A program made the translations under genes and the position numbers. The notes beneath the pieces were generated by a model, which worked only from the letters and a program-made list of their open reading frames with translations, had not been told where the DNA came from and ran no database searches. Shown in pieces: positions 10,722 to 64,000 of a DNA stretch of 64,000 bases (the first letter of the stretch is position 1; each line of letters starts with the position of its first letter). Origin of the DNA: an uncultured Candidatus Saccharibacteria bacterium (GTDB taxonomy: Bacteria > Patescibacteriota > Minisyncoccia > UBA6257 > 2-01-FULL-56-20); assembly GCA_964456235.1 (NCBI GenBank), contig CAYWDX010000001.1:201210-265209 (forward strand), written 5' to 3'.

Positions 10722-12587
10722 TTACTGGAAAGCGACGAGGGAACACTGGGCGTACATGCATACGCCAATGCGTCCGTCGTTCGCCGAAAAGAAGCCAGCA
10801 CCGAGGAGTGCGCTCGTCGCGGTGAGCGGCGTCGCAACTCCGTTCGCGTCCACCTTCACAAAACGCGTGAGGCGGGCATTCGTATCGGCGTAAGCGACGA
10901 TGAATACCTGATGCGTCTCATCCGCGGCGAGCCGAAATGGCACGCCGGGGACGAGGCCTTGCAGGTTCACCGTGCGCGTGACCGTACGCGAGGAGAGCGA
11001 CACCACCGCGAGGAGCTGGTCGAAGCTGCTCAACACGGCCGCGTTGCCCGATGACGCCCCCGCATTGATCGCCGCCACCTGCCATCCACCGCTCGTCGCG
11101 TTGGGCAGCTGGGAGGAGCGAGTGAATCCGGTAAGCGCCGTCGTACCTCGAAGCGCCATCCCCGCCGTGTTGAAAACATACAGCGCGGGCGGCGAATCGT
11201 CCTTCGCGTAAGAAACTACGTCGAGTTCCCCGCCAACCAAAGCCATCGCGAGCGACCAGGGGAGGTTCCCAGCGTTGGCAGAAGTCGGCACGAGGGTGGT
11301 TTGGCTTGGATCGAAACAGGTCACCGCATTGCTGTTTGGCTGCGTGATGCAGGCCTGCTTCGATTTCGCCGCTACTCCGAATGCCTCTGTCCCACTATTG
11401 AGGCCGGCGACGGGATTTCCGGTCGATGGGTTGATGACCACCGAAGGATGTCCGATCAACGTCTGAGCGGAAATCACATACCCGGTCACGTCATCAACCG
11501 CGATTGCTGAATTGCCTCCAGGAAGGAAGGTGCGGTTCAGGGTGCCATCTGCGTTAAAGTAGATCGCCCCTGCGCTGCTCCCACTAGCATTCCCTTTGGC
11601 GAATTGGAAGAAGGTGCCATTCGCTGGATTCTTCGTCGCCGTGTTTTGGTCGCCGAGAAGCCCAATCGAACTAGTATTCGAAGTCGCACCGTTTGGGTCG
11701 CTCACTGAAATGTCGATCCAGCCAGCGGCCTGCTGCGGAGTTCCGAATGGCAACCCGATTGCTATCGAGGTCGGGCTGACGGTTCCCATGAGCACCACAT
11801 CGCCGAATGAAACCGCTGGTGCTATGTGGACCGTTTGCCCGGCGGCGAACCCCGAGCCGTTGATGGTTACCCCAAGAGCGGCTGGAGCGCCCGCGACGGC
11901 GAAATAGACGGTCGTGCGATTCAGCGAGTTGATCTGGAGCGCCGTGATCGTTACGGTTGCCGTCGCGGACTTTGTTGAGTCAGCAACGGACGTCGCCGTC
12001 ACGAGCACTTGCTTTGCGTTCGATACCGCAGGCGCCGCGTAAAGACCCGACGAGTTCACCGTGCCAGTTGGGGTGGTGTCACCTTGCGCGGCGTTTCTCA
12101 CCGACCAGGTAACCGACGCGTTCGCACTATTCGTGACCGTAGCCGCGAATTGCTGCGAACCGTTCGATGGCACCGTCGCGCTCGTTGGCGAAACAGCGAC
12201 CGTGACGGGGTTGACCGCTACGGTTGCCGATCCCGACTTCGACGCATCCGCGACCGCGGTCGCCGTGATCGTGAAGGTCGTGGCCGTTGCAACCGATGGA
12301 GCCGTGTAAACGCCGCTCGCTGTGATCGCGCCGACGGTCGTGTTACCGCCCGCGACACTGTTCACCGACCAGGTGACCGCCGTGTTCGTTGAATTGGTTA
12401 CGGTTGCCGTGAACTGCTGCGTGGCCCCCGTGTTGATCGTCGTCGGCCCCGCTGGCGAAACCGATACCGTGATGATTGGCGTGATTTGGGCCGACGTGTT
12501 GCCACTCGCGCCACCACCGCCGCAGCCTGTCAAAATGAACAGGCAGGCGGCGATCGCGAGTATCGCATTTACCGGAAGCGTCTTCAT
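10722..12587 (-). CDS. Surface lipoprotein with tandem Ig-like repeats
   Basis: Lipobox LTGC after a signal peptide (MKTLPVNAILAIAACLFILTGCGGGG). Tandem ~95-aa repeats of the TATVTNS.N..VTWSV type, also visible as nucleotide-level repeats. Confidence 0.7.
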   Translation of the reverse strand: MKTLPVNAILAIAACLFILTGCGGGGASGNTSAQITPIITVSVSPAGPTTINTGATQQFTATVTNSTNTAVTWSVNSVAGGNTTVGAITASGVYTAPSVATATTFTITATAVADASKSGSATVAVNPVTVAVSPTSATVPSNGSQQFAATVTNSANASVTWSVRNAAQGDTTPTGTVNSSGLYAAPAVSNAKQVLVTATSVADSTKSATATVTITALQINSLNRTTVYFAVAGAPAALGVTINGSGFAAGQTVHIAPAVSFGDVVLMGTVSPTSIAIGLPFGTPQQAAGWIDISVSDPNGATSNTSSIGLLGDQNTATKNPANGTFFQFAKGNASGSSAGAIYFNADGTLNRTFLPGGNSAIAVDDVTGYVISAQTLIGHPSVVINPSTGNPVAGLNSGTEAFGVAAKSKQACITQPNSNAVTCFDPSQTTLVPTSANAGNLPWSLAMALVGGELDVVSYAKDDSPPALYVFNTAGMALRGTTALTGFTRSSQLPNATSGGWQVAAINAGASSGNAAVLSSFDQLLAVVSLSSRTVTRTVNLQGLVPGVPFRLAADETHQVFIVAYADTNARLTRFVKVDANGVATPLTATSALLGAGFFSANDGRIGVCMYAQCSLVAFQ

Positions 12588-60275: not shown

Positions 60276-61017
60276 CCGCAAAGCCGAACTCGTCGAGCGG
60301 TTCACAAAAAAATATTCTGGCCTCGCCGTGGGGCGTTTTGATGGCGAATCGAAAGATGTGCTTGACGCCCTCGGCGGCTTCATCCGGAACCAGTCGATTT
60401 TCGAAAGTGCCAAGCTCGCGATGCTGGACAATGCCTTTGCAATAGATGCTCCCAAGCTCGCGAAGGCGCTCGAGCCAGCGCTCAATACTAAGGCCACGAC
60501 CATCCTGATTTCTGAAAAAGATAAGCCGGTCAAGGCGCTCGCGTTCTTGCTCAAAGCACCCGTCGTCGCCGAGCAATTCGAAAATTTGGAAGCGGCCGAG
60601 CTGAAGGCCTTTATAAAAGAGGAGGCAAAAAAGCTTGGCGTCACGGTTGCGGATGCAGCCGCGCAATTCCTCGCCGCCGTGTTCCAAAACAATGCTTGGG
60701 GCCTCGTGACCGAGCTCCAAAAAATTTCCAGCATGAAGCCGGGCGGCGCGATTGATAAAAATGATTTGAACGCGCTCGATCTCGAAGCGGCGCCGAACTA
60801 TTGGATGCTTTTGAACGGATTAAAAAGTCAGGATGGCCGCACGCGCCTCTCGACGCTTGAGCGCCTGTTCGCGCTGAATGATCCGCCGCCAAAAATTTTC
60901 AACATCCTCGCGGCGCAGGCGGGGGAAAAAACTGCGAAGATGGCCGAATACGACTTCGCGGTGAAGTCGGGGAAAATTGATTACGAAGAAGCGTTGCTCG
61001 ATCTAATCCTCGCTTAG
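60232..61017 (+). CDS. holA: DNA polymerase III delta subunit-like protein (short HolA)
   Basis: VFLYGPDDY N-terminus and helical C-terminal domain. Overlaps the pyrG tail. Confidence 0.55.
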   Translation: MVVFLYGPDDYRRHNRKAELVERFTKKYSGLAVGRFDGESKDVLDALGGFIRNQSIFESAKLAMLDNAFAIDAPKLAKALEPALNTKATTILISEKDKPVKALAFLLKAPVVAEQFENLEAAELKAFIKEEAKKLGVTVADAAAQFLAAVFQNNAWGLVTELQKISSMKPGGAIDKNDLNALDLEAAPNYWMLLNGLKSQDGRTRLSTLERLFALNDPPPKIFNILAAQAGEKTAKMAEYDFAVKSGKIDYEEALLDLILA

Positions 61018-61271
61018 CGGCCGATCAATTTTGCGAGCCGAGATTTGAGCCGATCCGCCTTATTCTTTTTCATCACATTGCTGCGCGCGGCTTTGTCGAG
61101 TGCCCGGTAGGCCGTGACGAGCGCCGCCTTGGCCTCATCCATTTTTTTTGACGCCGCAAGCTTGCGATAGGTCGTCACTGCTTTTTTATAAGCGTCTTTG
61201 CGTTTTGCATTGCGCGCACGATTCGTCCGATTCTGGCGGAGCGCTTTCTTTGCGGATGCAGTAATTGGCAT
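61014..61271 (-). CDS. rpsT: 30S ribosomal protein S20
   Basis: MPITASAKKALRQNRTNRARNAKRK... matches the S20 consensus. The longer ORF start at 61298 is rejected. Confidence 0.8.
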   Translation of the reverse strand: MPITASAKKALRQNRTNRARNAKRKDAYKKAVTTYRKLAASKKMDEAKAALVTAYRALDKAARSNVMKKNKADRLKSRLAKLIGR

Positions 61272-61411
61272 GGAGGTGAGTATAGCGAGAATGCGCATAT
61301 TTTACAAGGGCGGCGAGGCCATCATTGACAATATAGTATTTTATAATGTATAATAAACCCGGTTATTCAATATCACCGCTTGCGAAAACCGAGCGAGAAA
61401 ACGAGGATTAT

Positions 61412-62056
61412 ATGGGACTCGCCATAACCGAGAAACAGAAAGCGCGCCTTTTCGACCTAGGCGTTTCTGTCATGGAGTTGACCCGCGACGGAAACCGTGA
61501 CTGCGACGAGGTGATCTGCGTGCTTCAGGCAATCAAGGATCACAAGGATTTCGCGGCGAAACTTCAGGCTCCCACCACGAAGCACCCCCAACCAACCCCG
61601 CCTCCACTAGCGATCGTGATCAACGCCAACCTCGACCCCACGATCCCGTCCGGTCTCTGCCTCACGGGCAAGGGAACCGAGCACCGCAAGATGGGCCAGG
61701 TCACGCTCGAGAAGCGCCCCGACGGGAAGCTCTACGCGAACGGCACGGAGGTCGTCCGCCACCGCGTGCCCGGACAGATGAACGGCACCATCCAGGGCCA
61801 CAAGCTCCGCAAGGAGCTGGAGGGGGTGCAGGTGCTGAACGCCTGCATCATGGACGCCTTGCTCGCCAACCCAGAGCTCATCCCTGACGAGTGGAAGACC
61901 GGATACACCTATTTCTGGGGAACCATCTTCCGCCGCGCGGACGGCAACCTGTGCGTCGGGTACCTGTGCTGGCACGACGACCGGTGGGACTGGGGCTACC
62001 GCTGGCTTGACGGCGTCTGGGGCGGTCAGAACCCGGCCGCGGCGCTCGCAAGTTAG
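61412..62056 (+). CDS. DGR target (variable) protein; C-terminal ~40 aa form the variable region
   Basis: The 3' 123 nt (61928..62050) are repeated at 62427..62549 with substitutions only at template adenines. Trp/Asp-rich C-terminus RADGNLCVGYLCWHDDRWDWGYRWLDGVWGGQNPAAALAS. Start could also be 61346. Confidence 0.7.
   Translation: MGLAITEKQKARLFDLGVSVMELTRDGNRDCDEVICVLQAIKDHKDFAAKLQAPTTKHPQPTPPPLAIVINANLDPTIPSGLCLTGKGTEHRKMGQVTLEKRPDGKLYANGTEVVRHRVPGQMNGTIQGHKLRKELEGVQVLNACIMDALLANPELIPDEWKTGYTYFWGTIFRRADGNLCVGYLCWHDDRWDWGYRWLDGVWGGQNPAAALAS
61928..62050 (+). repeat. DGR variable region (VR)
   Basis: 123-nt match to TR with 17 mismatches, all at TR adenine positions. The conserved GC-rich 3' segment CAGAACCCGGCCGCGGCGCTCGCA is shared with TR and is consistent with an IMH. 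Confidence 0.85.
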
Positions 62057-62123
62057 CTCTTTGGCATTGGGGCGGTTATCATTTTCTGATCCTCTGTCCC
62101 TTTGCTCTGCGCATTTTCTTTCT

Positions 62124-62163
62124 GCCCGTGCATGAACTTCGGTTCTGCACGGGCTTTGTTTTT
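62124..62163 (+). terminator. Rho-independent terminator after the DGR target gene
   Basis: GCCCGTGCA (13-nt loop) TGCACGGGC followed by TTTGTTTTT. Confidence 0.7.
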
Positions 62164-62426
62164 ACAGACAATATGTGTGGTAAAATTTTTATGGAATAAA
62201 GCTCAAAACAAGTCCGCGGCTATGGTTGCGGGCGGCTGAGTTCCAGTATCACTGGATGCGGAATGGCAACGGCTACGGCTTTTGCCAGAGCCATCCTTTA
62301 TCAGCTAAAAACGAAGATACTTGGTGCATTGCGCTGGGGGATTACCCAAAGCCAAGGGGATATTCCGAATGAGATTCAATCCAGAGAGTATTCAATGGAT
62401 GGTGGCGCAGATGGCGCGATGCACGA

Positions 62427-62549
62427 TTCCGCAACGCGGACGGCAACCTGTACGTCAAGTACCTGTACTGGAACGACGACCGGTGGAACTGGAACTACAA
62501 CTGGCTTGACAACGACTGGGACGATCAGAACCCGGCCGCGGCGCTCGCA
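62427..62549 (+). repeat. DGR template region (TR)
   Basis: Invariant, adenine-rich copy with AAC codons at the positions that vary in VR. Not in a Met-initiated ORF. Confidence 0.85.
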
Positions 62550-62569
62550 GCTCTCATCGTTCTCCCGCT

Positions 62570-62956
62570 TTATCTCGAGGCGGGAGTTTCTTTAGCGACC
62601 TGTCGCGCCCATCCACCGATTTGCTTGCCGATTTCGAAAAGTTTTTCTGAAAGTGCGATATACTTCTTCCCGTCGACAGCTTTTATTTCCCAAAGTATTT
62701 CAAGAAAGAATTTTGCTAGGTCGAGATGTCGGGCAGCTTGTTCGAGGTAGGACAATCGGTCGTCTTTATTGGCGAAGACAGCGCGATATATCTCTCCGGC
62801 AGCGTCTATGAGCGATGCGTCTATTTTTATACCAAGCGTATATCGAGCATCTCTTCGCACATGCGGTAAGAATTCATGCCAGATTTTGTATGCACCAATC
62901 AAATGTTGAATAATCGGGAGCGTGATGCGTTGGGGGGGGGGGGTTATTGGTCGCAT
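62570..62956 (-). CDS. avd: Avd-like accessory variability determinant (four-helix-bundle / 23S rRNA IVS-protein family)
   Basis: 128 aa. IIQHLIGAYKIWHEFLPHVRRDARYTLG ... LSEKLFEIGKQIGGWARQ matches the four-helix-bundle family consensus. Opposite strand to the RT and overlapping its 5' end. Confidence 0.65.
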   Translation of the reverse strand: MRPITPPPQRITLPIIQHLIGAYKIWHEFLPHVRRDARYTLGIKIDASLIDAAGEIYRAVFANKDDRLSYLEQAARHLDLAKFFLEILWEIKAVDGKKYIALSEKLFEIGKQIGGWARQVAKETPASR

Positions 62957-63913
62957 TTGGATTTTAAGAAAATTAGTTCGCCGGAAAATTTATTGAAGGC
63001 GTGGCAGGAATTCCTGCTCGGCAAGCGCAAAAAGCATGATGTTCAAGAATTTCAGCTGCGACTCATGGATAATATTCTAGCATTGCACGCGGATCTTGCG
63101 GATGGAACCTATCGGCACGGCGGCTACCGAGCATTTAATGTTTCGGATCCCAAGCCGCGCCACATCCACAAGGCTAGCGTCCGCGACCGTCTTTTACACC
63201 ACGCTATTTATAGAGAGCTGTACCCAGCCTATGATCGTCTCTTTATCTCTGATTCGTTCGCGTGCCGTAATAATAAAGGGATGCATGCGGCGGTCAATCG
63301 TTTTCGCTCATTCGCTTTTAAAGTGGGTCGAAATAATACCCGAACCTGCTGGGTTTTGAAATGCGACATCCGAAAATTTTTTGCGAATATTGAGCACGGG
63401 ATTCTCATGCATATGTTGCGGCAAAAAATCGCTGACCCACAATTATTGGAACTGCTCCACCGTATCATTGAGAGCTTTGAAACGGTGCCGGGCAAAGGGT
63501 TGCCTCTTGGTAACCTCACGTCACAACTTTTTGTGAATATTTATATGAATGAGTTTGACCAATTCATGAAACATAATCTTCGCGTTAAGCACTACGTCCG
63601 TTACGCTGATGATTTTGTGGTCTTATCGCCGAATCGCGAATGGTTGGAAATTATTCTGAAAGAAATGGAAATATTTTTGAAAGAAAGGCTGCGGCTCGAA
63701 TTGCATCCCGATAAAGTCTTCATTAAAACACTCGCCTCCGGTGTGGATTTTCTTGGTTGGGTCCATTTCCCCGACCACCGGGTTCTTCGTAGCGCAACGA
63801 AACGCCGGATGTTAAAAAGAATGTCCCTCCATCGAACGGCCGAAACGGTTGCTTCTTACCGTGGGCTCCTTAAGCATGGCAACACTAAAAAATTAAGCAT
63901 ATACTTGGAGTAA
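62876..63913 (+). CDS. DGR-type reverse transcriptase
   Basis: RT motifs including LPLGNLTSQLFVNIYMNEFD (the SQ signature of DGR RTs, versus SP in group II/retron RTs) and YADD. ~345 aa. Start uncertain because of a G12 tract at 62932..62943. Confidence 0.85.
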   Translation: MPDFVCTNQMLNNRERDALGGGGYWSHLDFKKISSPENLLKAWQEFLLGKRKKHDVQEFQLRLMDNILALHADLADGTYRHGGYRAFNVSDPKPRHIHKASVRDRLLHHAIYRELYPAYDRLFISDSFACRNNKGMHAAVNRFRSFAFKVGRNNTRTCWVLKCDIRKFFANIEHGILMHMLRQKIADPQLLELLHRIIESFETVPGKGLPLGNLTSQLFVNIYMNEFDQFMKHNLRVKHYVRYADDFVVLSPNREWLEIILKEMEIFLKERLRLELHPDKVFIKTLASGVDFLGWVHFPDHRVLRSATKRRMLKRMSLHRTAETVASYRGLLKHGNTKKLSIYLE

Positions 63914-64000
63914 TGCTCTATAGCATTTCCGGCAAACTGGCCTCAAAACATGACCACTTCATCGTGGTGGAAGCGGCGGGGCTAGGCATGAAACTTTTTG
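63913..64000 (+). CDS. ruvA: Holliday junction DNA helicase RuvA (N-terminal fragment; continues past the window end)
   Basis: MLYSISGKLASKHDHFIVVEAAGLGMKLF matches the RuvA N-terminus. ATG overlaps the RT stop. Confidence 0.6.
   Translation, partial: MLYSISGKLASKHDHFIVVEAAGLGMKLF

Follow-up and report, generated by a model that had tools for sequence, protein, structure and literature searches.

For diversity-generating retroelements (DGRs) of the candidate phyla radiation (CPR), one architecture prevails: type B3, which accounts for 90% of CPR DGRs, places a template repeat (TR), the accessory gene avd on the reverse strand, and the reverse transcriptase (RT) gene in the order TR-(avd)-RT (Wu et al. 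2018, PMC5758913). The DGRs of Patescibacteria have been assigned to cellular clade 2 (Roux et al. 2021, PMC8144416), and the targets of CPR clade 2 DGRs typically bear neither transmembrane nor other recognisable domains (PMC8144416). The DGR reverse-transcription model rests on one phage element, with the essential RNA located 3' of the TR. In the RNA of the Bordetella phage BPP-1 DGR (mtd-avd-TR-brt), a noncoding 3' spacer of ~140 nt holds the primer adenosine as well as RT- and Avd-binding elements and envelops the RT (bioRxiv 10.1101/2023.10.23.563531). Here, we describe a cassette of target gene, TR, avd, and RT near the end of a 64,000-nt stretch of DNA (the window) from an uncultured Candidatus Saccharibacteria bacterium (assembly GCA_964456235.1, contig CAYWDX010000001.1, positions 201,210 to 265,209), which we hold with high confidence to be a complete chromosomal DGR of the Patescibacteria (CPR) B3 type.

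A repeat finder run on the window returned a 123-nt direct repeat of 86% identity, with two plus-strand copies 499 nt apart: the variable repeat (VR; 61928-62050) and the TR (62427-62549). A base-by-base comparison of both copies yields 17 mismatches, 17/17 at adenines of the TR, which bears 31 A in its 123 nt; the hypergeometric chance of all mismatches landing on TR adenines is 8.9e-13. From TR to VR, A has become G in 13 cases, C in three, and T in one. An earlier note on this DNA, made from the letters alone, had described 17 differences, each at a TR adenine and with C, G, or T in the VR, together with an AAC-rich TR, and the recount agrees in each respect. Read in the frame of the target gene, 8 of the 41 TR codons are AAC, and all 17 mismatches lie at codon position 1 or 2. 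The VR comprises the last 41 codons of the target gene, its 3' border (62050) standing 3 nt short of the TAG stop codon. The identity between TR and VR ends abruptly on both sides—at 61928/62427 and past 62050/62549. At the 3' end of the VR lies a 14-nt run of only G and C (62032-62045, plus strand) with an identical copy in the TR (62531-62544), a candidate for an element similar to the initiation of mutagenic homing (IMH) site, its function being suggested by analogy. With respect to IMH and IMH*, the run is the same in VR and TR, and the copies part only beyond 62050/62549. A scan of the 64-kb window with the TR, A positions ignored, gave no further VR on either strand. Among nine close relatives, the TR is near-invariant while the VRs differ.

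The RT gene (62957-63913, plus strand) encodes 318 aa from a TTG start, with an annotated alternative ATG at 62876 that gives 345 aa. Its product matches Pfam RVT_1 (3.3e-24) and PHROG 1423 (1.9e-107). The best solved relative is 8ub7_A, a 328-aa RT of the series 8ub7-8ube (E 5.7e-46). We take this chain as the Bordetella phage RT (bRT) because of its length and because D138, D215/D216, R74, and I181 occupy the positions given in the bRT papers. Among group II intron RTs, the best match reaches only 8.8e-21, and retron and defence RTs are weaker still; hence, the similarity scores—which are no tree—do not show the placement within group II introns or retrons that the earlier note had named as evidence to the contrary. 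Both motifs reported there, LGNLTSQ and YADD, are present. LGNLTSQ fits the DGR RT signature [I/V/L]GxxxSQ, where group II intron and retroviral RTs have QGxxxSP (PMC7826257). The equivalents of R74 and D138 are likewise conserved, with the arginine in PKPRHIH and the catalytic aspartates in CDIRKFF and YADD.

The start of the RT had been placed at 62876 in the earlier note. While the RT itself stands, this start probably does not, as relatives begin their RT where TTG 62957 lies. The open reading frame (ORF) from ATG 62876, which also stands in a public collection, shares 81 nt with avd. The RT of the closest relatives opens with MK..AENF, and 6 nt separate its ATG from that of the divergent avd. 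In the more distant locus L050, the starts of avd and RT abut (CAT directly followed by ATG) and the RT has the same 318 aa as in the window (CAT directly followed by TTG), making TTG 62957 the most likely start. This divergent arrangement with starts 0-6 nt apart is seen at 62954-62959 in the window, at 3498-3503 in L050, and at ~1225-1240 in L024, so that each translation start region, and presumably promoter, lies inside the first codons of the other gene.

Between TR and RT, a gene for a 128-aa Avd-like protein had been noticed before without mention of its strand. This avd (62570-62956) lies on the minus strand, and its product is matched by three libraries, NCBIfam, Pfam, and PHROG; the match to PHROG 3206, 'Avd protein of DGR', reaches 1.2e-12 (no curated cut-off). 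Of 43 database homologues of this Avd, 41 carry PF22296. Each part of a complete DGR that had been named—adenine-specific TR and VR, DGR RT signature, and Avd homologue—is hence present.

The cassette sits between rpsT and a probable ruvA, with histidine kinase and CTP synthase genes preceding, and its context is therefore chromosomal. Since order and strands (TR plus, avd minus, RT plus) are identical to those of CPR architecture B3 (PMC5758913) and the context is a Patescibacteria chromosome, the element belongs to a known type. The same order is found in the related loci L006, L007, L010, L024, and L049-L054. Other CPR DGRs are likewise cellular and chromosomal, with a small domain-less target that lacks a transmembrane segment and bears a C-terminal VR, and we see no essential difference between the window element and the B3 class. 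The novelty implied in the earlier note was hence overrated, as the layout is standard for CPR (B3, PMC5758913) and domain-less targets are typical (PMC8144416). By itself, this DGR is one more among thousands, in the group where DGRs are most enriched, and changes little. It is rather two lineage-wide features—an RNA leader upstream of the TR and a C-run within avd—that raise its value beyond this.

For comparison, 32 loci were fetched via target homologues and six (L049-L054) via Avd homologues of 51-63% identity. In L006, L007, and L024, the cassette is complete, with order and strands as in the window; L010 agrees in both, but its contig ends 42 residues into the RT. The cassettes of L005, L012, and L015 are cut by contig ends. 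In L049-L054, RT and avd are divergent and back-to-back in 6/6, and 5/6 bear a target gene of ~200-250 aa some 450-530 nt beyond avd, the contig of L051 ending before the target. The arrangement as a whole recurs in at least 13 loci.

Twelve further TR/VR pairs were obtained, 11 beside related cassettes and one from a second DGR in L049. In these, 80-100% of the mismatches fall on TR adenines, but 69% in the decayed locus L003. Over 51 homologues, the Shannon entropy is 2.82 bits at those VR codons for which the first or second base of the TR codon is A, versus 1.14 bits for the other VR codons (p = 4e-7, Mann-Whitney), and the rest of the domain averages 1.24 bits. Because of this entropy pattern and the TR-A-matching mismatches in relatives, the target family carries the imprint of adenine-directed diversification. 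Across the lineage, adenines have been replaced by G in 152 cases (65%) and by C and T in 41 each. With bRT, the nucleotide reported to be misincorporated most often is dATP, from which A>T would result. The A>G excess could stem from selection on Gly/Asp/Ser/Arg codons or from a different polymerase bias.

Two side observations concern these relatives. The second set in L049 (5188-7396) is different, DGR-like, and lies less than 2 kb from the first cassette on the same contig; RVT_1 and bAvd occur in it beside a target that faintly matches FGE-sulfatase, and its own TR/VR mismatches are 18/18 at adenines. Also, most members of the target family have no RT nearby. Many homologues lie by themselves among unrelated housekeeping genes, and orphan targets are found in L002, L004, L008, L009, L013, L014, L016-L020, L022, L023, L025, and L041-L046. 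Such orphans may have remained as relics, or a cassette elsewhere may serve them in trans.

Upstream of the TR, the region from target stop to avd was aligned in ten loci, and pairing was tested on a 13-sequence alignment (A7). The ~230 nt before the TR are more conserved than coding sequence, and this conservation sets in just downstream of an extended -10 promoter element (TGgTAAAAT, 62178-62186, plus strand; conserved as GTGATAAAAT or GTGGTAGAAT in related loci), from which we infer a promoter for the TR-containing RNA. The leader (62193-62426, plus strand), directly 5' of the TR, is predicted to fold into six helical regions in the covariation alignment: P1 (62200-62237), P2 (62243-50/62316-23), P3 (62254-62296), P4 (62324-35/62413-24), P5 (62339-65), and P6 (62379-62400). 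These comprise 56 pairs (RNAalifold, 13 sequences), 30 of which show compensatory double changes, versus 5-13 when the 3' partners are slid by 1-3 columns. Likewise, 95.4% of the cells are paired versus 38-46% with slid partners, and the covariation score is 0.369 versus 0.07-0.12; for each of the three measures, 0/500 column shuffles reach the observed value. The RNA is assigned to the plus strand—that of the TR—because of many conserved G-U pairs.

A hidden Markov model of the leader has one match in the window (62201-62425) and finds every cassette-bearing locus. Among these are L001 (6644-6890), L005 (659-883), L006 (2433-2658), and L007 (3987-4211), and on the minus strand L049 (4037-4267), L050 (4025-4180), L052 (2548-2743), L053 (2998-3201), and L054 (2989-3183), the latter five with TRs and targets that differ in sequence. 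Searched with both strands of 61000-64000 and up to an E of 1, Rfam, including the motifs RT-1 to RT-19, gave no match. A scan of IMG/VR for the leader motif gave 11 matches, all by chance and none with similarity to RT, avd, target, or leader. No earlier description of the leader RNA or of the avd C-run was found in the literature covered, which excludes Paul et al. 2017 and the supplements of Wu et al.

We regard it as very likely that the leader is a conserved RNA structure, though the alternative that these 230 nt are a degenerate target remnant or a small coding region needs to be weighed. In some loci, ~50 nt upstream of the TR are weakly similar to target residues 152-172 (tblastn), and ORFs can be drawn across the region. 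However, these ORFs lie in different frames by locus, and the indels are not multiples of three, among them a 22-nt self-complementary hairpin insertion in L001, L012, and L024. Moreover, the compensatory changes are not reproduced by the controls, and the element is kept beside unrelated TRs in L049, L050, and L052. A remnant or coding region is hence very improbable.

Four TR types can be compared at the junction between leader and template, and in these, the TR/VR homology starts 2, 2, 5, and 12 nt past the conserved ...GCAC that closes helix P4. P4 might hence act as a template-boundary element, which would produce just such a start of the homology. Pairings over longer distances were also considered. 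Those between leader and TR, suggested by RNAalifold on close relatives, were rejected because the leader is kept beside unrelated TRs and the same bases pair inside the leader in the broader alignment. A pairing of the leader ACGAU or GAGAG with sequence 3' of the TR was dropped by eye as inconsistent across divergent loci, among which no consistent pairing of leader and 3' flank was found.

Just 3' of the TR, a terminator scan identified a hairpin of 10 pairs (62562-62586) with a U-rich tail (62562-62596 in total, plus strand). Hairpin and U-tract are retained in L049, L050, L051, and L052 with differing stems. Stem-loops termed 'Avd-binding' were described just 3' of the TR in 207/278 DGRs, CPR included, in a survey that spanned 40 nt upstream and 100 nt downstream of the TR (Handa et al., bioRxiv 10.1101/2023.10.23.563531). 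By analogy, the hairpin in the window is a candidate for binding Avd, for terminating the TR RNA, or for both. The DNA of its 3' arm and tail also encodes, on the opposite strand, the conserved C-terminal tail of Avd (K-E-T-P-A-S; last codons ...ETPAS), and this sharing may account for the conservation of that tail.

The window element and BPP-1 are alike in RT homology with signature motif and catalytic residues, in bearing an Avd homologue, in the adenine-specific transfer from TR to VR, in the AAC-rich TR, and in the stem-loop just 3' of the TR. Also, the 14-nt G/C-only repeat end resembles the (GC)14 element of BPP-1 (PMC3240598). In contrast to BPP-1, avd lies on the opposite strand and downstream of the TR, and the target is cellular and not a phage tail fibre, with A>G predominating instead of A>T. 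The free TR-RT spacer of BPP-1 is replaced by avd antisense: only ~45 nt—hairpin and U-tract—follow the TR in the window, partly within avd antisense, while ~230 nt of structured leader stand 5' of the TR. As avd antisense fills the spacer position here, our hypothesis would be that the leader takes over part of the role of the 3' spacer; this and its other proposed roles are conjecture. An upstream covarying RNA in the commonest CPR architecture is a candidate for both template-end definition and RT-Avd recruitment where avd fills the spacer position.

The second lineage-wide feature is a homopolymer within avd. On the plus strand, 62932-62943 reads G12, corresponding to C12 in avd codons 5-9 (TPPPQ); no other run of G or C in the window exceeds 7 nt, and this one ends 13 nt ahead of the RT TTG. 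A run of C8-C13 is found at the same avd site in 14/14 loci examined (window, L001, L005-L007, L010, L015, L024, and L049-L054) and persists though its flanks diverge and Avd identity drops to ~50%. The other conserved prolines of Avd are written with varied codons (CCG, CCT, and CCC in the LPII motif), and what is preserved in the run is hence its nucleotide sequence. The avd ATG is in frame in 6/14 (window C12, L005 C9, L001 C8, L049 C11, L050 C12, L051 C13) and out of frame in 8/14 (C11 in L006, L010, and L024; C10 in L007, L015, L052, L053, and L054), the out-of-frame loci often carrying a stop just ahead of the run in the Avd frame. Among loci picked without regard to avd, three are in frame and five out.

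Database homologues of Avd are bimodal in length, with internal-start calls in 18/43, and two N-truncated calls picked as a test were both C10 frame breaks, so that breaks at the C-run would explain many N-truncated Avd gene calls in databases. The variable run could reflect slipped-strand phase variation, transcriptional slippage, or the shortening of long G/C tracts by library PCR or assembly. That it acts as a switch is an idea we entertain without favouring it; if its length varies in vivo, the run would be a simple on/off switch for targeted hypermutation. A full-text search combining DGR with homopolymer or phase-variation terms gave no paper joining them among the top results.

Two other explanations of the cassette as a whole have to be set against a complete DGR. 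The repeat pair might stem from an ordinary segmental duplication acted on by another A-biased process—deamination or codon selection—with the RT belonging to an unrelated retroelement. The dominance of A>G (13/17 in the window, 65% in the lineage) is what an A-to-I type process would give, but A>C and A>T are seen as well (4/17 in the window and 82/236, or 35%, over the lineage), the relatives differ in the copy inside the gene and not in the downstream one, and the RT bears the DGR signature with Avd adjacent in a recurring arrangement. We consider such a duplication next to impossible. It is also conceivable, though unlikely, that a real DGR is now silent, the 17 differences recording past activity and a lost RT start or the avd homopolymer blocking expression. 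This would agree with the out-of-frame avd starts in relatives, with relatives at all stages of decay, and with the RT start of the window, where 24 nt of its closest relatives are missing together with their ATG, so that the TTG or the upstream ATG is needed. On the contrary, target, TR, avd (in frame with C12), and RT are all open in the window, and the RT start of L050 abuts avd just as in the window. Furthermore, not one TR/VR difference falls on a base other than adenine, which argues against a long silent period.

The shortened RT start also counts among the points that speak against a complete DGR in general. The Avd product stays below the cut-offs of NCBIfam DivGenRetAVD (2.5e-14; 53.5 bits, cut-off 80) and Pfam bAvd (1.5e-8; 35.5 bits, cut-off 40). 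Several relatives are decayed, and cassettes of this lineage do die: L001 keeps target, TR, and avd with the RT absent within 6 kb, in L003, avd is truncated and a fragment of the RT lies 4 kb off, L021 and L026 have kept the leader and lost the TR, and in L047/L048, an orphan target is followed by merely 72 nt of leader. Phage DGRs bear a GC-rich hairpin or cruciform with a 4-nt GRNA loop 4-34 bp past the VR (PMC3240598), and no GRNA-loop hairpin is found at this distance after the window VR, the nearest strong one lying 74 nt off with a TTCG/UUCG loop. This hairpin is, however, a feature of phage DGRs and no strict DGR requirement. Finally, that mutagenesis in the window element is still going on is a presumption.

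For the complete B3-type DGR that we prefer, a course of events can be proposed that joins what the analysis shows—the components, differences confined to adenines, the recurrence of this pattern among relatives, and a structured RNA. In the layout target-VR, leader-TR, avd on the reverse strand, and RT, an RNA starting from a promoter near 62180 would comprise the ~230-nt structured leader, the 123-nt TR, and the 3' hairpin. This RNA would join RT and Avd, and the RT would copy the TR to cDNA, misincorporating opposite adenines. The cDNA would then replace the VR at the 3' end of 61412-62056, by which up to 21 codons of a divergent C-type-lectin-like surface might be rewritten while scaffold codons would stay unchanged. 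Transcript ends, RNA–protein contacts, and the priming site are inferred in this proposal. More speculative, and in our view rather doubtful as a whole, is a ribonucleoprotein of this lineage built unlike that of the Bordetella phage, with the 5' leader scaffolding RT and Avd and P4 setting the template boundary, combined with phase-variable hypermutation via the avd C8-13 located 13-20 nt upstream of the RT start.

The target gene (61412-62056, plus strand) encodes 214 aa with an N-terminal helical hairpin, a Pro-rich linker, and a C-terminal domain of ~150 aa that ends in the VR. It is preceded by a promoter with a 12/12 match to the sigma-70 consensus (TTGACA-18-TATAAT, 61325-61354, plus strand). 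As ATG 61346 falls within the -10 box of this promoter, 61412 is taken as the start, in line with the earlier note. Past the gene, a hairpin with arms GCCCGTGCA and TGCACGGGC (62124-62154, plus strand) has a TTCG loop on an inner GAAC/GTTC stem, and behind it a T-run extends to 62164. It begins 74 nt past the VR and is conserved in related loci, where stem changes preserve the pairing. This hairpin is likely the terminator of the target gene, and possibly a cruciform.

The protein collection holds 112 target homologues, all unnamed or 'hypothetical' and with named sources exclusively in Patescibacteria or Paceibacteria; the closest is 72% identical. Pfam, NCBIfam, and PHROGs hold no family for the target, none of the 112 homologues bears a Pfam domain in this region, and the target-family profile has no match among PDB sequences even at E up to 10. 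A structure prediction by AlphaFold2 with the family alignment reached a whole-protein pLDDT (predicted local distance difference test score) of 88.8, with the helical hairpin at residues 7-50, the Pro-rich linker, and an alpha/beta domain from ~residue 65 (pLDDT near 97). Structural neighbours of this domain are weak only and mostly of C-type lectin fold. They include the Bd2740 tip domain, invasin, intimin, many animal C-type lectin domains, and FGE, EgtB, and PvdO-type domains, as well as three solved DGR variable proteins with C-type lectin fold—TvpA (2y3c; 3.1), Mtd (1yu0; 2.9), and AvpA (5ioo; 2.8). Foldseek shows weak agreement with C-type lectin-type neighbours. The model hence is suggestive of a divergent C-type-lectin-like C-terminal domain. 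The structure prediction proposed earlier for a CLec/FGE fold thus gave a confident model, with neighbours that are weak, mostly C-type lectin, and in part FGE-type.

Neither a signal peptide nor a hydrophobic segment was seen in the target when its sequence was read by eye and not by a predictor, which agrees with the earlier note as to the signal peptide. Since CPR clade 2 targets are typically without recognisable domains (PMC8144416), a target without signal peptide and known domain is expected. The family may or may not be one of the unnamed UVR classes of Wu et al. (PMC5758913). With 112 members, a well-predicted fold, no annotation, and numerous orphan copies next to decayed cassettes, it provides a defined set for asking what CPR cells diversify.

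Some minor observations concern the surroundings of the cassette. At 63911-63915, the TAA stop of the RT overlaps the ATG of the next gene (TAATG). The first 28 residues of this gene weakly match RuvA_N (E 7e-4, below the cut-off), and the overlap is peculiar to this genome, as other loci have different genes after the RT. Over 61400-63950, the composition is a mosaic, with a GC content of 0.59-0.66 in the target gene, 0.43-0.50 in avd and RT, and ~0.54 in the flanking chromosome. Elsewhere in the window, self-BLAST detected a diverged tandem duplication of ~213 nt and 64% identity (11945-12157 and 12212-12421), which shows no adenine bias.

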